Assembly (NCBI GenBank): GCA_002773535.1
Contig: PFAZ01000009.1
Location: 34,739-98,738, forward strand
DNA from: Candidatus Harrisonbacteria bacterium CG10_big_fil_rev_8_21_14_0_10_40_38
GTDB lineage: Bacteria; Patescibacteriota; Minisyncoccia; UBA6257; 1-14-0-10-40-38
Reading direction: 5' to 3'
DNA: 64,000 bases
The notes under the pieces were generated by a model. The model saw only the letters and a program-made list of their open reading frames with translations. It made no database searches and had not been told where the DNA came from. The translations under genes were made by a program, and so were the position numbers. Positions 5,895 to 39,077 of the stretch are shown here, piece after piece (position 1 is the first letter of the stretch; each line of letters starts with the position of its first letter).

Positions 5895-6458
5895 ATGGAC
5901 AAATTAGTTATAGATATAGAAACATCAAATACGTTTGCAGATGTCGGAGGTCATAGAAATGTGGCTGATCTTTCTGTTTCCCTCGTGGGAATATATTCGT
6001 ATTCAAACGATAAATTTCATGCTTTTTATGAACACAATCTTGCTGATGCAGCTCCCCTTTTACAGTCTTGTGGTTTGCTAATTGGCTTTGCGATAAATAG
6101 GTTTGACGTGCCGGTTTTAAATAAACATTATCCGTTTAATCTTTTTTCGCTTCAGAGACTTGATTTACTTGATGAGATTGAGCTTTCGAGTGGAAGAAGA
6201 ATTAGTTTAAATATTTTGGCGAAGGCTAATTTAGGGGTTGAAAAAACTCACCATAGCCTTGAAGCAATTGATTTATACAGAGATGGAAAGTTTGACGAGT
6301 TAAGAGATTATTGTCTTACTGACGTGAAAATAACTAGGGATTTGTACGAACTCGCAAAAAAACAGGGATATTTAATCGTTCCTGATAAATTTTCAAACGA
6401 ACCACAAAAAATCGAACTCTCTTGGGAAGAACAAGCTTTCCCCGCAACTCTTTTTTAG
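5895..6458 (+). CDS. DEDDy-type 3'-5' exonuclease (RNase H-like superfamily, standalone DnaQ/PolB-exo-like domain)
   Basis: 187 aa. Exo I motif VIDIETSN, Exo II motif GFAINRFDVPVLNKHY, Exo III motif YCLTDVKITRDLYE. Confidence 0.6.
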   Translation: MDKLVIDIETSNTFADVGGHRNVADLSVSLVGIYSYSNDKFHAFYEHNLADAAPLLQSCGLLIGFAINRFDVPVLNKHYPFNLFSLQRLDLLDEIELSSGRRISLNILAKANLGVEKTHHSLEAIDLYRDGKFDELRDYCLTDVKITRDLYELAKKQGYLIVPDKFSNEPQKIELSWEEQAFPATLF

Positions 6459-7396
6459 TTTTTTATATAACCTTCCAATCTCTTAACTCCTTCTTTTAAC
6501 ACCTCTTCTTTTTTTGCTTCGACGTTTAGGCGAAGGAGGTTTTCTGTGTTTGATGGCCTTACACTAAACCACCACATATTTTCTCCTTCACCACATTCAA
6601 TACGAATGCCGTCCAAGTTGTTTGAATTTTTTATTTCGCTTATAAAAGCGTTTTGAATTTTTTCTATTATTATCTGCTTGTCGCTGACTTTGTAATTTGT
6701 TTCTGGGATTCTATAGGTTTTGAGGGATGATTTTTCCCACTCGCTTAGACTCGTGTTTTTTTCTTTTAATTTACTTAGAGCATTTAACATACTCATTGAA
6801 GCGCGCAGACCTGAATCGGCATATAAAAAATCTTTAAAATAATAATGACCGGAAACTTCAGCGCCAAAGGCAATATCTTTTTCTCTCATCATTTTTTTTA
6901 TGAAGTAGTGGCCTACGCGACAGTCTATAACAGATCTATTATTTTCTTTTAGCCATTCTCTAATTGGATAGCCGCTTCGAACATCTATGATTACCGGTCC
7001 ATTAAACTCTAATGCAATGAGTATGGCTGCTTTGTCGGGGTGAATTTCATCGCCTTTGTTATCTATAAAAAAAACCCTGTCCTCGTCAGCGTCTACAATG
7101 ATGCCTATGTCTGCATTTTGTTTTTTTACTTCTTGTTTTAAACCCTCCATCGCGCCTTCTTTTAGGGGGTTGGGGCCATGAGCGGAAAAATTAGGGTCGG
7201 GTGTTTCGTTTATTAAAATTATCTCTAAATTGTTTGGATTGAGGTTTTTTAGCTCTTCAAGAACGATGCCTGCTGTACCGTTTGATAAATCAAAAACCGC
7301 TTTTATCTTACTTGTCAGATTTAACCGACTTTGTAGAAATTTTGCATATTCTTTTGTGTAGTTTGTGTTGTTCATATCTTGAGTCAAGTATATCAA
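6455..7396 (-). CDS. phosphoglucomutase/phosphomannomutase, C-terminal fragment (alpha-D-phosphohexomutase domains II-IV). The gene is split from its N-terminal domain by a ~1.2 kb insertion.
   Basis: 313 aa. Segment YAKFLQSRLNLTSKIKAVFDLSNGTAGIVLEE matches the start of PGM/PMM domain II. Metal-binding loop IVDADEDRV. ORF-track start is TTG at 7394-7396; the first ATG is at 7373-7375. No obvious Shine-Dalgarno sequence. Confidence 0.7.
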   Translation of the reverse strand: MIYLTQDMNNTNYTKEYAKFLQSRLNLTSKIKAVFDLSNGTAGIVLEELKNLNPNNLEIILINETPDPNFSAHGPNPLKEGAMEGLKQEVKKQNADIGIIVDADEDRVFFIDNKGDEIHPDKAAILIALEFNGPVIIDVRSGYPIREWLKENNRSVIDCRVGHYFIKKMMREKDIAFGAEVSGHYYFKDFLYADSGLRASMSMLNALSKLKEKNTSLSEWEKSSLKTYRIPETNYKVSDKQIIIEKIQNAFISEIKNSNNLDGIRIECGEGENMWWFSVRPSNTENLLRLNVEAKKEEVLKEGVKRLEGYIKN

Positions 7397-7531
7397 TATT
7401 TGCCGTGGCTGTGCCTACCCCTTTACATATTTATTTATTTGGTGCTATGTTTTTTGTAGTTCTTGTTGGCTTCTTGGCTATACAAGTTTTCATGTTCATT
7501 GATAAAACCTAAGCCTCATGGAGGGCTTGTC

Positions 7532-8122
7532 GTGAGAATAACTCAAATATTGATTCTTGTTGTTTTTGTCGTTTGTGGTGTTTGTTTTTTTAACGGCCTT
7601 AAGACAAGGCGAATACCCGAAACAAAAAAGGAGGAATATCGCGAACTTCCTGTAACAGAGGTGGTGGGCGCGCCCACAAACGAGGAGGAGAGCAGGGTCG
7701 CCGTTCCTTTGGATGAGCCTGTGGTGGCAAAGAGTGAAGTGACTACCAATAATGAGGAGCAAAAAAAAGAAACCTTTCAAAATGATGAAATGGAAAGACG
7801 AGCTTATCTCATTGACGAGTGCAAAGCTGCTCTCAAATCTATCACGACTGAGAGCCTTGATGCATTCAATAATTCGGGTAGTGAAGAAGAATCGAAAGCG
7901 CAGCTGCGAAGATTTGATGATATGAAGAATGCGACATTGTGGGGATATTTCCCTTGGGCGCCGTCGATTGTGGAACAGAGAAGGTATGTTCTGTTAACTG
8001 GAAAGTACCCTCTTATTTCTAGTGAATTTAGGGAGTTGGAGAATAATTGCTTCAGTGATGCTGAGGCATGGGGAACTCTCAAACAGAAGATCGAAAACCT
8101 CAAACAGGAGAACAAAGAATGA
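7532..8122 (+). CDS. hypothetical membrane-anchored protein (insertion cassette gene 1)
   Basis: RBS GGAGGG (7520-7525), 6-nt spacer, then GTG at 7532. N-terminal TM ITQILILVVFVVCGVCFF, then an acidic/hydrophilic domain. Stop TGA at 8120-8122 overlaps the next start (ATGA). The ORF track extends further upstream to 7463. Confidence 0.5.
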   Translation: MRITQILILVVFVVCGVCFFNGLKTRRIPETKKEEYRELPVTEVVGAPTNEEESRVAVPLDEPVVAKSEVTTNNEEQKKETFQNDEMERRAYLIDECKAALKSITTESLDAFNNSGSEEESKAQLRRFDDMKNATLWGYFPWAPSIVEQRRYVLLTGKYPLISSEFRELENNCFSDAEAWGTLKQKIENLKQENKE

Positions 8123-8568
8123 AAATTGCTCACCGGTTCGCTTCCCTCTCCATCGTTCTTTCCATCTTCTTCGCCCTCACGCCCATTCTTCGGGCTGATG
8201 ACGGCCTCAAGGGAAAGAGTGTTTCCTACACCGGAAACGCAATTACCTTCACCGTGTCGTTCGGTCCGGAGGTCAACGGAACCTCGACTGCCCTCATCTC
8301 TGGAACGATTGATGGCAAAGACTTCGTTGCCGCTGCGTGGGTGCGTCAACTGGACGACGGCATGTTGGCGCTGTGTTCGGCGCCGGGGTCGGATGAACTG
8401 CCAGTGATCGAGGTAGGCGATCCTCCAAGGGTGAAGAAATACCGCTTTAACCCATGGATCGATCCGACTGAATTCGGTCAGGATGAGCCCTTTCCCGGCG
8501 GAGGTGTTCAAGACGTAGGAAATCGAGGTCCCGTGAGGTACCGACCTTTAAGAGGGAGGAGTACGTAG
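8119..8568 (+). CDS. hypothetical small secreted protein, GC-rich (insertion cassette gene 2)
   Basis: ATG at 8119 in an ATGA overlap with the upstream stop, which suggests translational coupling. Signal peptide MKIAHRFASLSIVLSIFFALTPILRA with a cleavage-like site before DDG. Codon usage is much more GC-rich than in the rest of the window. Confidence 0.55.
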   Translation: MKIAHRFASLSIVLSIFFALTPILRADDGLKGKSVSYTGNAITFTVSFGPEVNGTSTALISGTIDGKDFVAAAWVRQLDDGMLALCSAPGSDELPVIEVGDPPRVKKYRFNPWIDPTEFGQDEPFPGGGVQDVGNRGPVRYRPLRGRST

Positions 8569-8596
8569 AAAAAGCGTGTCGTGTACTGCGGTTTCT

Positions 8597-8640
8597 GCAG
8601 GCGAGTAATTGTATTTTTACTTTACTCGCCTGTTTTTTTT
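8597..8640 (+). terminator. rho-independent terminator of the inserted cassette
   Basis: Hairpin CAGGCGAGTAA ... TTACTCGCCTG followed by TTTTTTTT. The 3' arm of the hairpin overlaps the stop codon (8622-8624) of the truncated PGM N-fragment on the opposite strand. Confidence 0.7.
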
Positions 8641-9017
8641 ATAAGACTTAATATCTCCGTGCCGCTCACCGGTATGGCATTTTTTTCTACAACTTTACAA
8701 CCATTAAATTCAGGCGGGTTATGAGAAGCCGTTATCATAACACCACCTTCAGCATCCAGCTTGCCTACTAAAAAATAAAGCATGGGCGTTGTAGAGAGGC
8801 CTATTTCTATGACTTCTCTAACACCTACTTTTTTAAGGCCACTGACCATTGATTCTGATAGGCTTTTTGAACCGTTTCTTGCATCAAAACCGACAATGAT
8901 GCGGTTTTTTCCAATTCTTTCTGGGAGGGAGTTTCCGATTTTTTCCACAACTTCTTCATCTATTTCAGTTGGATAAATGCCTCTTATGTCGTAAGCTTTA
9001 AAAATATTTTCATTCAT
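8622..9017 (-). CDS. phosphoglucomutase/phosphomannomutase, N-terminal fragment (domain I with active-site serine loop)
   Basis: 131 aa. MNENIFKAYDIRGIYPTEID...GGVMITASHNPPEFNGCKVV contains the TASHNP phosphoserine loop. The last residues KKTGE and the stop are encoded by the T-run and hairpin of the inserted terminator. Confidence 0.75.
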   Translation of the reverse strand: MNENIFKAYDIRGIYPTEIDEEVVEKIGNSLPERIGKNRIIVGFDARNGSKSLSESMVSGLKKVGVREVIEIGLSTTPMLYFLVGKLDAEGGVMITASHNPPEFNGCKVVEKNAIPVSGTEILSLIKKTGE

Positions 9018-29731: not shown

Positions 29732-30136
29732 ATGAAAAGACGGATAAATCTTGATAAAGTTATAAAAATTTTTTTGGTTTCAGTTTTTGTTTTGGGTTTA
29801 TTTGCATCTGTTGCGCCACAAGCGTTTGCGGCAGTGAGGCTTTTTGGAATCAATGTTGATTGTGACCCATCTCTACCTCCTGCAAGCGGTGGATGCGGTA
29901 TTTCAACTTTTTTCCAATTTTTATGGATTATTATAGACAGGCTTATGAAGTACATAGCCATACCTGTTTCGGTGCTTATGTTTATATGGGGCGGATATGA
30001 TATGATTTTGTCAGGAGGATCGCCGGGGAAATACGAAGGAGGTTTAAAAAAGATGAAGGCGGCGTTTATAGGTTTAGTTATTTCTTTGTCTGCGATTGTT
30101 ATCGTAAGTTTTATAGGAAATTTTTTCTTTAAATAA
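29732..30136 (+). CDS. TrbC/VirB2-like pilin (T4SS-type pilin family), paralog 1
   Basis: 134 aa. Long signal peptide ending AFA. Two hydrophobic helices separated by the short loop SGGSPGKYEGG. Confidence 0.55.
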   Translation: MKRRINLDKVIKIFLVSVFVLGLFASVAPQAFAAVRLFGINVDCDPSLPPASGGCGISTFFQFLWIIIDRLMKYIAIPVSVLMFIWGGYDMILSGGSPGKYEGGLKKMKAAFIGLVISLSAIVIVSFIGNFFFK

Positions 30137-30139
30137 TTT

Positions 30140-30610
30140 ATGAAATTTTTACTGCTATTATTTCTGATTCAGCCGTTAGTTTTTTATACAACTGTTGTTT
30201 TTGCTTCAAATAGTTTGGGTCAAATTTCACAATCAGCAGGAGGTGGAGGGACATTGCCCGGACCAGGAGGATCAGCAGGAGGTGGAGGGACATTGCCCGG
30301 ACCAGGAGGATCAGCAGGAGGTGGAGGGGCATTGCCGCCAAAAGGCGGTTCCGGAGGAGTTCCGACAATAACGCCATCAAAATCACTTGAAGATATTTTA
30401 GATGATCTTACAAGATATGCTACGGGCATTGCTCTTGCGGTTGCTGGACTGACGATAATATATGCAGGGTATTTAATACTTTTTGCGGGAGGTGATCCGG
30501 GAAAGTTTGCGGAAGGGATGAGAGTGATACGTTATACGATAATCGGAATTATTGTGATATTCCTATCTGCGGCAATTGTTGCTATAGTTAAGAGGATAAT
30601 TATTGGATAG
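30140..30610 (+). CDS. TrbC/VirB2-like pilin, paralog 2, with a Gly-rich tandem repeat
   Basis: 156 aa. Signal peptide, then a GGGGTLPGPGGSA x2.5 repeat, then the same two-helix pilin core (AGLTIIYAGYLILFAGGDPGKFAEG...IIGIIVIFLSAAIVAIV). Confidence 0.55.
   Translation: MKFLLLLFLIQPLVFYTTVVFASNSLGQISQSAGGGGTLPGPGGSAGGGGTLPGPGGSAGGGGALPPKGGSGGVPTITPSKSLEDILDDLTRYATGIALAVAGLTIIYAGYLILFAGGDPGKFAEGMRVIRYTIIGIIVIFLSAAIVAIVKRIIIG
30236..30340 (+). repeat. 39-nt tandem repeat (about 2.6 copies) encoding GGGGTLPGPGGSA
   Basis: gcaggaggtggagggacattgcccggaccaggaggatca repeated head-to-tail. Confidence 0.8.
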
Positions 30611-30644
30611 AAAGGTCGAGTTTGTTTAGATTTTATTTTGATTT

Positions 30645-30998
30645 ATGGATCGATCTTTAGTTAAAAAGATTTTTGGAGTAGTTGCCGTTTTTGTTCTAGC
30701 AGGCGCTCCCCTTCTTGCGTCTGCCCAAGTTGATTTTCAGGGGCCGGCACCTCAAGCAGATGAGTCACTCATTGGAAAAACTATTGATAGAATATTTAGT
30801 TTTGCGTTTGGAATCCTTTTGGTTGTCGCGGGTCTTATGATTCTATATGCGGCTTTCCTATACCTTCAGGGTGGAGCAAATGAAGCAAACGTAACAAAGG
30901 CAAAAAATTATATTTTGTATGCGGTTATCGCTATAATTGTTGCATTTCTATCGAGAGCGCTTGTTGCTTTCATAAATAGCACAATTCTTGGAAATTAG
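30645..30998 (+). CDS. TrbC/VirB2-like pilin, paralog 3
   Basis: 117 aa. Signal peptide ...LLASAQV. Core FGILLVVAGLMILYAAFLYLQGGANEANV...IAIIVAFLSRALVAF. Confidence 0.55.
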   Translation: MDRSLVKKIFGVVAVFVLAGAPLLASAQVDFQGPAPQADESLIGKTIDRIFSFAFGILLVVAGLMILYAAFLYLQGGANEANVTKAKNYILYAVIAIIVAFLSRALVAFINSTILGN

Positions 30999-34025: not shown

Positions 34026-34979
34026 CTATTTTTTATCTCTTCGCCTTGCGTGAAACGCGCGGTGGATGTCTTTAAGCTCCTTGTTTGTAAGGTGGGTGTA
34101 CACTTGTGTTGTTGAGATATGACTATGCCCGAGGAGTTCCTGAACCGATCTTAGGTCAGCGCCATTTACAAGAAGATCTGTTGCAAAGAGATGTCTGAAA
34201 CTGTGCGGCGTTACACGTGAGCCAACACCTGCTTTTCTGGCGTATTTTGTTACCAAGCGTTCAACAGAGCGCGGAGAAATTTTTCCCATAACGCTCCCCT
34301 GTTTTGAAATACTAATAAACAGCGCCTCTTCTGTGTCTACTCTTTTTTTTAGATATTCTTTAATTGATTCTTTAGCGCCGTCGGAGAGAAAAACTACGCG
34401 GATTTTACTCCCCTTTCCTCTGACACTTACCTCTCCCCGATCAAGATCGATGTATCTGCCAAGACTGCAGAGCTCGGAAAGTCGAAGACCTGTAGAAAAT
34501 AATGTTTCTAAAATTGCTCTGTCGCGAAGTGAGCGGAGGTTTTTTCCCTCTGGTGAATTTAATATTCTTTCGAGATCTCGGGCATCGAGCATCTCGATTT
34601 CTCTATCCGGTAGTTTGGGAAGCTCAACTTCATCTGGCGCTGCTGGTGTGTGTCCTTTTTTAATCAGGTATCTTAAAAAATTTCTGATGGCGATAGCATA
34701 ATAACTTTGGGTGCTTTTTTTGAGCTCAATCCCTTCTTCTGTTTTTGATCTTGCAAGCTTAAGACGAAAATTTCTGATAGTGTCTACCGTTATATCGCTT
34801 GGCTTAGATATGTTTTCCTCTTTGAAAAATCTTTTAATATATCTATCATAGTTATCCCTAGTGCGAAGGGATCTATTTTTTTCTATCTCAAGATAATCAA
34901 GATATTCTTTTAGAGATTTTTCTGCTTCTGTCATAGTTGTCTTATATATACATATAAGTATACGACAATGGTGAATCAA
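34026..34979 (-). CDS. tyrosine-type site-specific recombinase (XerC/XerD family)
   Basis: 317 aa. N-terminal core-binding domain. C-terminal catalytic motifs HSFRHLFAT, LLGHSHISTTQVYTHL. Its 3' end abuts tRNA-Leu. Confidence 0.8.
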   Translation of the reverse strand: MIHHCRILICIYKTTMTEAEKSLKEYLDYLEIEKNRSLRTRDNYDRYIKRFFKEENISKPSDITVDTIRNFRLKLARSKTEEGIELKKSTQSYYAIAIRNFLRYLIKKGHTPAAPDEVELPKLPDREIEMLDARDLERILNSPEGKNLRSLRDRAILETLFSTGLRLSELCSLGRYIDLDRGEVSVRGKGSKIRVVFLSDGAKESIKEYLKKRVDTEEALFISISKQGSVMGKISPRSVERLVTKYARKAGVGSRVTPHSFRHLFATDLLVNGADLRSVQELLGHSHISTTQVYTHLTNKELKDIHRAFHARRRDKK

Positions 34980-36990: not shown

Positions 36991-37204
36991 TATTTATTTG
37001 TGAGCCTGCCTGGAATCTCACGCGCTCCGCAATGCGGGGCTTTTAAAACCCCTCGGTTTTAATGTTTCCGCCACGGTAAAACAAGTGTTTTCCCGACCCC
37101 TGCCTGCCGGCAGGCAGGCCTTTCCTGTTCGAATCGCATTCAAATAATTTTTATAAGATAGATCCTGTTAAGTAAAAATATATTTATTTGTGCGCCTGCC
37201 TGGA
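36991..37204. repeat. 24-nt direct repeat of the tRNA 3' end (36991-37014 and 37181-37204, one mismatch), flanking a decayed tRNA-like remnant and a 20-bp perfect palindrome
   Basis: tatttatttgtgAgcctgcctgga versus tatttatttgtgCgcctgcctgga. The sequence between them contains GATTCCAGGCAGGCTCAC (a degenerate tRNA T-arm/acceptor read on the minus strand), the palindrome cctgcctgccggcaggcagg (37099-37118), and GGGGCTTTTAAAACCCC. Confidence 0.6.
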
Positions 37205-37262
37205 TTCGAACCAGGGGCCAATGCCTTATAAGAGCACTGCTCTGCCACTGAGCTACAGGCGC
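37191..37262 (-). tRNA. tRNA with an Ile-type anticodon loop and anticodon UAU (putative tRNA-Ile reading AUA)
   Basis: Read on the minus strand: GCGCCTG TA GCTC AGTGGCA GAGC A GTGCT CTTATAA GGCAT TGGCC CCTGG TTCGAAT CCAGG CAGGCGC A. The loop CTTATAA gives anticodon UAU. The loop is identical to the E. coli tRNA-Ile(GAU) loop except at position 34. Confidence 0.75.
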
Positions 37263-37444
37263 GAATTTTTTTGTATTCTAAGTGTACGACGATATTTAAA
37301 AGCCTTCAAGTTCTTTAAAAAATGTTTTCAAAATTAATATGCCTGTTAGCAAATGTGCATAACTTTGCCTATTGCCGAATGTTGCCGATTTGCCTTATTC
37401 TAGTTAGCTTTTTTGACTATCTGCTTTTTTTATTTTCTCGCTGT

Positions 37445-37473
37445 TTGCACACTTTATCCACAGGCAGTATAAT
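37445..37473 (+). promoter_or_regulatory. sigma70-like promoter for tRNA-Val; the spacer contains a perfect DnaA-box 9-mer
   Basis: TTGCAC (37445-37450), 17 nt spacer, TATAAT (37468-37473). The spacer includes TTATCCACA (37454-37462). Confidence 0.55.
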
Positions 37474-37491
37474 CGAGTATATTCATATCTT

Positions 37492-37563
37492 GGGCGCTTA
37501 GCTCAGTGGCAGAGCGACTCGTTTACACCGAGTAGGCCGTGGGTTCGATCCCCTCAGCGCCCA
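37492..37563 (+). tRNA. tRNA-Val (anticodon UAC)
   Basis: GGGCGCT paired with AGCGCCC. D-arm GCTCAGTGGCAGAGC. Anticodon stem ACTCG/CGAGT with loop TTTACAC. T-loop TTCGATC (one T-stem mismatch). Confidence 0.8.
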
Positions 37564-37586
37564 CAAAACAATTCTCAAATATTTGT

Positions 37587-38633
37587 GTGAAACATTTTTA
37601 TTTGTTTCACGCTTTTTTGTTACAAAGTGTTTCACGTGAAACACTTTGTAACAAATTTCGAGTGCTTTAAAATATTTTTAACTTATTTTTTTGGTTTGGT
37701 GTTTGACGTGAAACACTTAATAAAATTAATGAGATTGTTATCTGATGTTTCACGTGAAACATATTTCTTTTTTTAGATTAGGTTTACCCATAAATGTTTT
37801 TATTTACTTCTGTGCATCAATGCTTGATGAGCTTATTTAAAAAATATCTACGCGGCATGTTTGACGTGAAACATGTCTCTTTATTGCGCTCTCTGCTATT
37901 AATTTCTTTTTGTGAGTGTTTGACGTGAAACACTTAATAAAATTATTTTTTCCAAATCCCCTATTCTTACTTTTTTAAATTTTAGTCTTTTGGTTTAGCT
38001 TGTGTGTTTGACGTGAAACATGTAAAACTTTTTACGGCTTTATTAACTGCTGACTTTTTTATTTTCCTCCGCTCGATTTTGGAATATCTTTTCTGTTCTA
38101 TGTGTTTCACGTGAAACACTGTTTAATACCTTTTACCTGTCTGAAAAATTTTTTACGCACGATGTTTCACGTGAAACATATTTTTACCTTTGTTATCATA
38201 CTTCACAAGAGGTCAGGTGTTGTAGGTATCTTCGAGCACAGATGCGCGATTAGTCTCTCACCGATGTGCTCGTATTCCTTCATGTTTGGCCTCTCTTTTT
38301 TTAAAACGATTTGTTTCTCACTTTGAATAGAAGTGTTTGGCGTGAAACACTTGGATCGGTTTTTAAGCTGCTCGGTTTCCTGCTTTTTTGTTTTTTATCT
38401 TTTAGTAATTCCTTTTGTACTTTTATGACTTTCACAGATTTATCGATTTTCTAAACCTGGTTTTCAAATTTTGTTTAATACTTTTATTTTTACTTAGATA
38501 CTTTTTTGGGTAGAATTTTTTTTCTTTTAAGAAAATGTTTCACGACAAACATTTATTGATGCTTTATTTGTGTTGAGATGTGAAACATAGTGTGAAACAT
38601 GTGTTTTAGTGTGAAACATTTTAAATGTTTCAC
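37587..38633. repeat. dense array of ParB-binding parS sites (16-bp palindrome TGTTTCACGTGAAACA and variants): centromere-like array
   Basis: Full sites at: 37628-37643 (perfect), 37700-37715 (TGTTTGACGTGAAACA), 37746-37761 (perfect), 37858-37873 (G variant), 37917-37932 (G variant), 38005-38020 (G variant), 38103-38118 (perfect), 38163-38178 (perfect), 38334-38349 (TGTTTGGCGTGAAACA), 38536-38551 (TGTTTCACGACAAACA). Additional half-sites: 37587-37594, 37603-37610, 38580-38587, 38592-38599, 38611-38618, 38626-38633. Spacing is irregular, about 46-200 bp. The region is non-coding. The 74-aa ORF at 38102-38326 (MFHVKH...) is just a translation of parS copies. Confidence 0.85.
37617..37654. repeat. 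38-bp perfect palindrome centred on the first parS site
   Basis: ttgttacaaagtgtttcac|gtgaaacactttgtaacaa. Confidence 0.8.
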
Positions 38634-38663
38634 ACTTGTTTCTTGTATGCTTTACTTATTTAC

Positions 38664-39077
38664 ATGGCAACACATAATGAAATCGGCATATTGGGCGAGT
38701 TGATTGCCGAGAAGTATCTTAAATCGATTGGTTGCCGAATTATTAATAAAAATTTTTTAAGAACTTGGGGGGAGATTGATCTTATTGTTTTAGCAAAGGA
38801 TAAAACATTGGTATTTGTAGAGGTAAAGACTATGAGGAAAAATGCTTTTTTAAAACCCGAAGATAATGCGACTTATAGCAAACTCGAAAAAGTAAAGAGA
38901 ACTGCCATGTTTTATGTAGGAGAGAACCAAAAACTTATTAGCGACAAGAGGGGGTGGAGAGTTGATGTTGTTTCAATACTTCTGCCACAAAATTTTTCTA
39001 TCGCATCGGAAGTTAATATGAAAAAATTTGTTAAAAAATTTTCTGATTACAAACTAAATCATTTTGAAAATGTGTAG
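38664..39077 (+). CDS. yraN: YraN-family (UPF0102) endonuclease
   Basis: MATHNEIGILGELIAEKYLKSIGCRIINKNFLRTWGEIDLIVLAKDKTLVFVEVKT is the typical UPF0102 pattern. The ORF track start at 38625 lies within the parS array; ATG 38664 is the more likely start. Confidence 0.8.
   Translation: MATHNEIGILGELIAEKYLKSIGCRIINKNFLRTWGEIDLIVLAKDKTLVFVEVKTMRKNAFLKPEDNATYSKLEKVKRTAMFYVGENQKLISDKRGWRVDVVSILLPQNFSIASEVNMKKFVKKFSDYKLNHFENV

Follow-up and report, generated by a model that had tools for sequence, protein, structure and literature searches.

A compact array of canonical parS sites as the probable chromosomal centromere of a Candidatus Harrisonbacteria bacterium

The window, the whole 64-kb stretch of DNA analyzed here, contains a 1,099-bp spacer bounded by a tRNA-Val(TAC) gene (37492 to 37564, plus strand; ARAGORN; Rfam tRNA, 67.9 bits) and by yraN of the UPF0102 family (38664 to 39077, plus strand), as a preliminary description of this DNA had correctly stated. 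The GC content of the spacer is 0.30, versus 0.40 across the window. Using the pattern TGTTTCACGTGAAACA and allowing at most two mismatches, we found 10 matches in the window, all within 37628 to 38551: four perfect, four with one mismatch, and two with two. Dinucleotide shuffles gave a chance expectation of 0.02, and 10 matches were reached in none of 100 shuffles. The sites are 16-bp inverted repeats matching the chromosomal parS consensus, tGTTNCACGTGAAACa (PMC7022226). Six of them depart from the consensus, four at the normally conserved C6; eight differ from the pan-bacterial parS by at most one mismatch, and four of these are exact copies. The pattern count bears out the earlier claim of at least 10 parS sites plus half-sites in about 1 kb of noncoding DNA, and the motif is indeed the canonical chromosomal parS, vastly overrepresented and limited to one spot. 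No further parS with up to two mismatches was found from −9.1 to +81.6 kb in window coordinates (∼91 kb).

Perfect sites are found at 37628 to 37643 (site 1), 37746 to 37761 (site 3), 38103 to 38118 (site 7), and 38163 to 38178 (site 8). Site 1 is the center of a 40-bp perfect palindrome (37616 to 37655), and site 3, with its ATG..CAT flank, forms an 18-bp palindrome. Sites 2 (37700 to 37715), 4 (37858 to 37873), 5 (37917 to 37932), and 6 (38005 to 38020) share the one-mismatch form TGTTTGACGTGAAACA. Site 9 (38334 to 38349; TGTTTGGCGTGAAACA) has two mismatches and one intact half-site, and site 10 (38536 to 38551; TGTTTCACGACAAACA), also with two mismatches, resembles the hybrid TGTTTCACGACCAACA of a relative, L299. 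The preliminary description spoke of tandem iteration, which does not fit the spacing: Tandem Repeats Finder (TRF) detected no array-wide period, and successive sites are 72, 46, 112, 59, 88, 98, 60, 171, and 202 bp apart. Its proposal of growth by unit duplication fared better, as three site pairs (2/5, 4/8, and 1/7) show extended flank similarity. The flank of site 2 is duplicated at site 5 (37685 to 37728 versus 37902 to 37945; 86% identity over 44 nt), the 36-nt unit of site 4 is 81% identical to that of site 8, and the 67-nt unit of site 7 is 70% identical to that of site 1. The site 2/5 duplication contains “cacttaataaaatta,” one of two spacer repeats quoted earlier; the other matches only loosely. 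Contigs of four independent assemblies carry the array with 100% identity, and sequencing reads exceed its repeat units (16 to 44 bp) in length, which makes collapse unexpected; an assembly artefact, raised at the outset as a possible refutation, is therefore ruled out.

Half-sites accompany the full sites. The half-site GTGAAACA occurs 24 times in the window (2.2 expected), with 20 of these within 37587 to 38633, and six extra half-sites accompany the 10 full parS sites. Half-sites in swapped order had been reported at both ends of the array; they are present (37587 to 37610 and 38611 to 38633), with spacers of 8 and 7 nt instead of 7 and 9. The left bookend, GTGAAACA-N8-TGTTTCAC (37585 to 37612, plus strand), lies 20 nt past tRNA-Val and forms a terminator-like hairpin with a 10-bp stem followed by TTTTTT; it is 88% identical to a hairpin of L299 (L299:14832-14863). 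The right bookend, GTGAAACA-N7-TGTTTCAC (38608 to 38636, plus strand), folds into a hairpin (13-bp stem) shortly before the yraN start and is 90% identical to L299:14830-14858. Beside it, two direct half-sites, (G/A)TGTGAAACA (38580 to 38599, plus strand; TRF period 12), align with relatives, four of which have a homologous block, containing the invariant GTGTGAAACA, upstream of yraN. The spacer also contains a GC-richer long hairpin followed by a U-run (38208 to 38305, plus strand; fold, −30.1 kcal/mol; z = −1.95). A promoter-like match (38171 to 38199) overlaps parS site 8 and precedes this hairpin, which might conceivably mark a small transcript; it had no Rfam match and no homologue in the relatives. 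Among RNA families searched with Rfam in the spacer, tRNAs alone passed.

Based on Pfam annotation, the array neighbors include FtsK, RecA, NusA, PNPase, GyrA, FtsH, RecG, RNR, RuvABC, and ClpP; proteins of this region are PIR88947.1 to PIR88965.1 (locus tags COU07_). The genes dnaN, dnaA, and rnpA-yidC-jag begin ∼2 kb past the window end on the same contig. Of the 11 DnaA-box matches found, 6 are grouped within the rnpA-dnaA spacer and upstream of it, which places the cluster ∼30 kb rightward of the array. Within the window, DnaA-box matches are at chance (19 versus 16.7 expected), with one perfect box beside the array (37454 to 37462). Cumulative GC skew shows no turn at dnaA and no inflection at the array and is uninformative as an origin marker; the position of the origin is based on gene content and DnaA boxes only. 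Gene content and DnaA boxes put the array in the origin-proximal part of the main chromosome, in housekeeping surroundings.

We found no ParA or ParB gene in the window, in agreement with the earlier reading, whether by tblastn with Soj/Spo0J, Pfam annotation, or a ParB profile. The same approaches, with a profile of 51 ParB sequences, found none from −9.1 to +81.6 kb, and none lies within ∼40 kb on either side of the array. No ParB was detected in any of the CPR loci collected (tblastn and ParB profile HMM); the probes do work, because they found ParA/ParB in 53 non-CPR loci. In many bacteria, parAB adjoins the rnpA-jag side of oriC, a place occupied here by a T4SS-like cluster. Chromosomal parB is reported for 89 to 98% of species in Moranbacterales, UBA9973, and UBA6257 (PMC12704722 Dataset S1; PMC11974145), which are three of the four listed orders of the class Paceibacteria; Moranbacterales has it in 96% of species, and species of the fourth order, Paceibacterales, mostly lack it (present in 19%) (PMC12704722 Dataset S1). 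We found nothing in the literature on parS in CPR.

Other public genomes, above all those of CPR, also contain arrays of 7 to 12 parS per ∼1 kb, of which we found no published description. Tight clustering had been taken as a plasmid trait, a view that finds no support, as close parS pairs are widespread on bacterial chromosomes: at least 120 listed loci from many bacterial phyla have two parS sites 28 to 58 bp apart, and 53 of these are listed with soj-spo0J homologues in the same 8 kb, which links the motif to parAB; chromosomal parS sites are, moreover, usually clustered (PMC8357415). Locus L108 (Lachnospiraceae), one of these 53, has eight parS in a 46- to 47-bp tandem array directly upstream of ParA-ParB, with no match in PLSDB, and L066 (low-GC Bacilli) has 10 parS in 2 kb just after recF-gyrB-gyrA. 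Three CPR loci carry 12 perfect parS in 1.65 kb (L212), 8 perfect parS (L213), and 11 parS (L062), with no parS outside the dense array in any of these loci. Their arrays, which span 1 to 1.6 kb, are inside a Wzy_C membrane-protein gene, with sites in all three reading frames. The window array shares a canonical consensus and a chromosomal location with all five loci. It differs from L108, a true tandem array beside parA-parB, in being irregular and in having no par gene in ∼91 kb, and from the three CPR arrays in being intergenic. Genes of the window neighborhood shared with L212 and L213 include GyrA and Lactamase_B_3, and L212 also shares S1, FtsH, and XerC. We ruled out a decayed Wzy_C pseudogene as host of the window sites: tblastn with 122 Wzy_C proteins detected no Wzy_C gene in the window, and every match was anchored on the peptide that parS encodes, in alignments interrupted by stop codons.

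We conclude that the tRNA-Val–yraN spacer is probably where this Candidatus Harrisonbacteria (Parcubacteria/CPR) bacterium has its main-chromosome parS centromere and ParB-loading site, in a very compact form. Given its position on the main chromosome, close to the origin genes, the locus is best read, among the options offered at the outset, as a concentrated centromere or ParB-loading hub. We infer binding at the array, and all that follows from it, from the behavior of ParB elsewhere. Each 16-bp palindrome would be recognized by ParB dimers, which, with CTP bound, would close as clamps and then slide outward onto the neighboring DNA, as ParB is known to do in other systems. The clamps would build one partition complex close to the origin, which ParA and/or SMC loading could then use to separate sister chromosomes. 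With 10 full sites and six half-sites in 1.1 kb, one locus would take all ParB loading. Local duplications of a site together with its flank are the most likely way in which the array expanded, and the everted half-site hairpins at its two ends probably have a second role as terminators or insulators of transcription for tRNA-Val and yraN. Overall, there is good reason to regard the array as a chromosome-segregation site of an ordinary kind in unusually compact form.

We also compared the locus with relatives whose FtsH is 73 to 77% identical and which retain the order XerC-FtsH-...-tRNA-Val-spacer-yraN (tRNA genes of relatives were scanned in L299 and L300 only). Here and in four relatives, yraN is directly downstream of a repeat-bearing spacer. 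In the four closest relatives, of which 12 to 22 kb were examined, this spacer contains no canonical full parS and has other repeats: TGTTGG(C/T)TGACCAACA in L300 (three full copies and one shorter), two copies of the hybrid TGTTTCACGACCAACA plus TGTTTGCCGGCAAACA in L299, about four copies of TATGCAGACGGCAAACA in L301, and ..GACCAACA types in L302. These repeats are of the TGTT-N8-AACA kind around an invariant parS half-site, GTGTGAAACA, the sole invariant element in an alignment of the spacers. Conservation next to recG was examined in 80 metagenome loci of RecG relatives (41 to 56% identity), which add up to 963 kb of further Parcubacteria sequence; neither TGTT-N8-AACA clusters (background, 0.44 per 20 kb) nor a parS array occurred there, and synteny is too eroded at that distance.

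One bolder reading, which we put forward tentatively and think rather doubtful, is that a Paceibacteria family keeps its centromere at a conserved position, in this spacer, with a binding-site sequence that is turning over between close lineages, and that CPR have a general habit of packing the whole centromere into ∼1 kb. The spacer has canonical parS here and hybrid TGTTTCAC/GACCAACA, TGTTGGCTGACCAACA, and GGCAAACA-type repeats in the relatives, with the GTGTGAAACA half-site common to all, and on this view Moranbacteria-like lineages would write 8 to 13 parS into the Wzy_C membrane-protein coding sequence in all three frames. If true, the spacers would record, as a natural series, either switches in ParB-parS specificity or another binder taking over from ParB, the latter in a class in which one order has largely lost ParB.

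The relatives' spacers, with other repeats and no canonical parS, suggest that the locus might serve a different binder. The spacer would then be a conserved platform for something other than canonical ParB, either a diverged ParB-like protein or an unrelated DNA-binding protein tied to the region upstream of yraN, and the palindromes would be this lineage's version of a fast-evolving TGTT-N8-AACA family. The invariance of GTGTGAAACA amid differing repeats, the absence of such clusters from other Parcubacteria DNA, the lack of a detected ParB in ∼91 kb around the array, and the scarcity of ParB in Paceibacterales are all consistent with this idea. However, most sites are identical to pan-bacterial parS or one mismatch from it, the same palindrome occurs in arrays of CPR orders that have ParB (such as Moranbacterales), and no candidate alternative protein was identified. 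The relatives may also carry canonical parS outside the sequence examined. On balance, we consider another binder unlikely.

The palindromes could instead have a mainly transcriptional role, with tRNA-Val, yraN, or a small RNA using them as terminators or operators. Terminator-like hits exceed expectation (6 versus 1.7) and include both terminal hairpins and several parS sites; the array extends up to the yraN start, and the promoter-like site overlaps site 8. Yet termination needs no 10 copies of a parS-identical 16-bp palindrome, most sites have no T-tract, and a role of this kind explains two bookend hairpins at most, making it a very improbable account of the array.

Three further explanations appear to have almost no chance of being correct. 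A sopC/parC-type partition site belonging to a plasmid- or phage-like replicon, integrated or episomal, would fit the many sites in ∼1 kb, the T4SS-pilin genes in the window, the integrase-family gene that adjoins tRNA-Leu 2.6 kb from the array (34026 to 34979), and a few IMG/VR contigs with canonical parS arrays of up to eight sites. This option, raised in the preliminary description, is contradicted by the housekeeping flanks syntenic with relatives, a contig shared with dnaA/dnaN, and the lack of adjacent parAB or a fixed repeat period; the integrase is a XerC/D-type gene found beside FtsH in every relative examined, and the array had no match beyond the tRNA in PLSDB (plasmids) or INPHARED (phages). 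Selfish REP/MITE-like palindromes or a CRISPR/TIGR-like array with no segregation role would account for palindromic units with duplicated flanks, and TIGR arrays are common in CPR (PMC12045711), but all copies are in one spacer with none in the other ∼90 kb of the ∼91 kb examined, so a dispersed repeat, the refutation anticipated earlier, was not encountered. Nor does the irregular spacing fit the 36-nt dual-repeat TIGR unit (PMC12045711) or a CRISPR period; no Tas/Nop or Cas gene is present in the annotated region, and no Rfam family matched. A replication origin or iteron field for an initiator would suit a long, AT-rich, noncoding spacer in a compact genome with a perfect DnaA box beside it, but DnaA boxes in the window are at chance, their cluster is beside dnaA 30 kb away, and the skew has no inflection at the array.

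parS is the near-universal bacterial centromere sequence, and parS/ParB is the main bacterial chromosome-segregation system. To our knowledge, it has yet to be studied experimentally in CPR/Patescibacteria, with their tiny cells and genomes of <1 Mb. A natural centromere with 10 predicted loading sites in 1 kb would be an extreme case for ParB-CTP clamp models, with implications for loading flux, for the blocking of clamps at neighboring sites that are occupied, and for a single collision-avoiding SMC entry point. Arrays within a coding gene in some CPR, and a conserved spacer with changing repeats, offer two testable handles on the coevolution of centromere sequence and ParB specificity. If the organism lacks ParB, the evident maintenance of 10 perfect or near-perfect parS would point to a binder not yet known.

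The array closely resembles chromosomal ParABS of Bacillus subtilis, Caulobacter crescentus, Corynebacterium glutamicum, Pseudomonas aeruginosa, and Myxococcus xanthus, with the same 16-bp palindrome in multiple copies (PMC7022226 Table 1; PMC8357415). It is likewise in the origin-proximal domain, and ParB-CTP loading with roles for ParA and SMC would be expected. Known ParABS clusters have 1 to 22 sites, typically over 5 to 40 kb and often beside parAB (PMC7022226 Table 1; PMC8357415). Unlike these, the 10 sites here are 46 to 202 bp apart in one 1.1-kb spacer, with no parAB in ∼91 kb. In the F-plasmid centromere sopC, a 43-bp repeat occurs 12 times, and SopB, a protein of the ParB family, binds these repeats. 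Like sopC (named in PMC3597684) and comparable iterated centromeres of plasmids, the array has about 10 predicted ParB-family sites in 1 kb or less that would nucleate one partition complex. sopC is a strict tandem repeat of plasmid-specific sequence, adjacent to sopAB and on a plasmid, whereas the window array has no period, a chromosomal consensus, housekeeping flanks, and no adjacent par genes. Finally, GTTTCAC-type half-sites are bound by several ParBs, those of P. aeruginosa and others (PMC7022226, PMC5961200), and isolated half-sites of this type are found at both ends of the array. The Pseudomonas half-sites number in the hundreds and are distributed genome-wide, whereas here six are attached to the array, one of them invariant across relatives.

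Between tRNA-Val (37492-37564) and yraN/UPF0102 (38664-39077; COU07_03570 / PIR88947.1) lies a 1099-bp spacer with a GC content of 0.30, versus 0.40 for the window, which holds exactly ten matches to TGTTTCACGTGAAACA with ≤2 mismatches (37628-38551), all that occur in the 64-kb window and against a shuffle expectation of 0.02. As in the preliminary description, four sites are perfect, four read TGTTTGACGTGAAACA, and two have two mismatches. Of 24 copies of the half-site GTGAAACA in the window, 20 fall at 37587-38633 (expected, 2.2). A 40-bp perfect palindrome is centered on parS site 1 (numbered from the left), and the extended flanks shared by sites 1 and 7, 2 and 5, and 4 and 8 fit the earlier proposal that the array may have grown by segmental duplication of units. 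Spacing is irregular (46 to 202 bp), and Tandem Repeats Finder detected no period in the array, so the sites are clustered and the earlier term "tandem" does not apply. Everted half-sites, GTGAAACA-N8/N7-TGTTTCAC, bookend the array as first reported, with spacers of N8/N7 rather than N7/9; both are predicted hairpins with terminator-like scores, and the left one lies 20 nt past tRNA-Val, with T6 directly after. Inside the array, at 38171-38305, a promoter-like site with a -35 element overlapping parS site 8 accompanies a GC-richer hairpin of 87 nt that has a U-run after it. This hairpin may be a small RNA; its fold z-score is only -1.95, Rfam gave no match, and the relatives have no homologue.

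The 2.1 kb around the array are 100% identical in contigs of two ENA assemblies and one JGI assembly, and a shorter Logan contig that starts inside parS site 1 is identical across its whole 1.5 kb. Identity across these independent contigs rules out an assembly artefact, including the collapsed repeats considered earlier. The window encodes FtsK, RecA, NusA, H+-PPase, PNPase, S1, GyrA, a XerC/D-type recombinase, FtsH, RecG, ribonucleotide reductase, RuvABC, ClpP, and trigger factor, and contigs with its last genes run on into dnaN, dnaA, and rnpA-yidC-jag. This DNA is the main chromosome of a Candidatus Harrisonbacteria MAG (Parcubacteria, CPR), not the integrated or episomal replicon once envisaged. 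Based on the location of dnaA (∼67.3-68.7 kb in window coordinates) and the grouping of 6 of 11 DnaA-box matches within the rnpA-dnaA spacer and immediately upstream of it, the array lies ∼30 kb from the probable oriC. Of the markers originally suggested for finding oriC, dnaA and dnaN served, but the cumulative GC skew climbs steadily from -9 to +82 kb (numbering extended beyond the window ends) with no turn at dnaA; the probable position comes from gene content and DnaA boxes, not from skew. The suggested search for parS elsewhere on the contig yielded no site with ≤2 mismatches outside the array from -9.1 to +81.6 kb.

T4SS-pilin/PrgI/TraC/VirB4-like clusters flank the origin region on both sides (at 29732-30998 in the window and past its right end at L130:5436-9997), and a pilin gene differs by 39 nt in length between the window and other assemblies around 30271-30297. 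Also in the window is a split phosphoglucomutase gene (6455-9017, minus strand), with domain I (8622-9017) separated from domains II-IV (6455-7396) by ∼1.2 kb of higher-GC DNA containing two ORFs without Pfam hits.

The absence of parA/parB from the window, noted previously, was confirmed and extended: neither tblastn with Soj/Spo0J nor a profile built from 51 ParBs gave a match in the window and flanks (together -9.1 to +81.6 kb), and Pfam annotation of the flanks revealed no ParA or ParB. These probes work: of 120 unrelated loci listed, 53 gave Soj/Spo0J homologues. The parAB genes are often located on the rnpA-jag side of dnaA; here, a T4SS-like cluster occupies that side, next to jag. Chromosomal parB is reported in 96% of species of Moranbacterales, 98% of UBA9973, 89% of UBA6257, 97% of Saccharimonadales, 19% of Paceibacterales, and 0% of Absconditabacterales and BD1-5 (PMC12704722 Dataset S1); the class Paceibacteria includes UBA9973, UBA6257, and Paceibacterales (PMC11974145). 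We consider it quite probable that the array is the chromosome's parS centromere, a single intergenic array ∼30 kb from oriC, and that the ParB binding it is encoded in another part of the genome.

The comparative pattern around the array is more surprising than the array itself, which alone is of moderate interest. The four closest relatives (L299-L302), whose FtsH matches that of the window at 73 to 77% identity, retain XerC and FtsH, then a spacer directly upstream of yraN, preceded by tRNA-Ile(TAT) and tRNA-Val in the two scanned (L299 and L300). No full canonical parS occurs in this spacer in any of the four. Instead, L300 (5160-5603) has TGTTGG(C/T)TGACCAACA in three full copies and a fourth, shorter one; L299 (14830-15610) has an everted half-site hairpin like the window bookends (88 to 90% identical), direct half-sites, and two hybrid sites, TGTTTCACGACCAACA, plus TGTTTGCCGGCAAACA; L301 (13650-14030) has about four copies of TATGCAGACGGCAAACA; and L302 (5365-5760) has sites of the GACCAACA type. 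Window site 10, TGTTTCACGACAAACA, is similar to the L299 hybrid. Lineage-specific 16-mers in these spacers are TGTTGGCTGACCAACA, TGTTTCACGACCAACA, TGTTTGCCGGCAAACA, and TATGCAGACGGCAAACA, and the block TTGACAAAAGTGTAAAACAAGTGTGAAACA is common to L300-L302. In an alignment with the window, the parS half-site GTGTGAAACA is the one element invariant in 5/5 genomes. In 963 kb of DNA from other Parcubacteria, there were no such TGTT-N8-AACA clusters (background, 0.44 per 20 kb). The spacer is kept while its repeats differ and is thus conserved in position, not in sequence. Either the relatives have canonical parS elsewhere and a spacer that serves something else, or divergence is affecting both the centromere motif and its binder. 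These noncanonical repeats point toward the main rival explanation, a different or diverged binder in place of canonical ParB, which we regard as unlikely for the window array.

L299 carries a free-standing LAGLIDADG gene within the spacer upstream of yraN, and in relatives both the XerC/D-type recombinase (726 aa) and an FtsH of 1057 aa contain intein/LAGLIDADG insertions (L301:7300-9480, protein P0194). A tRNA-Ile of a kind rare in bacteria, with the anticodon TAT (UAU), is conserved beside FtsH in this lineage (window 37190-37262, L299:11920-11992, L300:4378-4450); in the more distant CPR genome L212, TilS is encoded in the same neighborhood. Short repeats in direct and inverted orientation lie beside the tRNA genes (window 37370-37400, L299:14750-14830, L300:5040-5130, L301:13490-13640, L302:5240-5330); their unit is AATGCGGCAAT, AATCCGGCAAT, or AATCCTGCAAT, with TTGCCG in the window, and some of the repeats form perfect hairpin-plus-T-run terminators. 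Separately, the palindrome TTGACGCGTCAA occurs in four copies in each of two RecG-relative loci (L138:2994-6715 and L143:2743-5140), spanning 2.4 to 3.7 kb.

A mainly transcriptional role of the palindromes is very improbable and would explain the two bookend hairpins at most. Further readings were rejected because each fails a tested defining feature: an origin, a TIGR/CRISPR array, a plasmid or episome, and, across the ∼91 kb covered, REP-like repeats dispersed in the genome. The most likely interpretation of the array is the ordinary function of parS in an unusual, compact form.

Chromosomal parS sites number 1 to 22 and usually cluster across 5 to 40 kb near oriC (PMC7022226, PMC8357415); our literature searches turned up nothing about parS in CPR or about arrays this dense. 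A scan for pairs of parS sites 28 to 58 bp apart, run on a single genome per species and thus limited to preselected pairs, recovered at least 120 loci over many phyla, with soj-spo0J within 8 kb in 53 of the 120 listed; tight pairs are therefore common, contrary to the earlier view that such clustering is unusual for chromosomes. Among the 120 listed, the maximum per 1.1 kb was two sites in 82 loci, three in 16, four in 13, five in 5, and seven, eight, nine, and ten in one each. IMG/VR contained 85 contigs with tight pairs, with 8 sites at most.

Two of the four densest listed loci, L070 and L062, are from CPR genomes. A single gene, encoding a Wzy_C membrane protein (O-antigen-ligase family), holds all 8 to 12 perfect sites in L070/L212 (Parcubacteria group), L213 (Moranbacteria), and L062 (Moraniibacteriota); the arrays are at L212:10001-11653, L213:10001-11617, and L062:6189-7973. 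The sites form a repeated three-site module in L070 and are translated in all three frames (LFHVEQ, CSTWNN, NVPRGT). Such peptides, 1 to 13 each, occur in 120/120 best Wzy_C homologues, a selection by shared words that favors carriers; those named are Moranbacteria, Parcubacteria, or Patescibacteria. We found no published description of parS arrays embedded in Wzy_C genes. The gene lies between those for the CCA-adding enzyme and gyrA, with Lactamase_B_3 past gyrA, followed in L212 by S1, FtsH, and XerC; the window's GyrA, Lactamase_B_3, S1, FtsH, and XerC are all 1 to 14 kb from the array. No Wzy_C gene lies in the window, nor is a remnant of one detectable in the array spacer. With arrays both within and without Wzy_C, packing of a whole centromere into ∼1 kb looks like a CPR habit, of which the Harrisonbacteria version would be intergenic.

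The other two of the four densest loci are not from CPR. L066, from a low-GC Bacilli MAG, has ten parS sites in 2 kb, starting 11 bp past recF-gyrB-gyrA. In L108, from a Lachnospiraceae chromosome, eight canonical sites recur every 46-47 bp (1014-1353), a true tandem array directly upstream of parA-parB-DUF4446-serS; its layout is like that of sopC, but its units are chromosomal parS.
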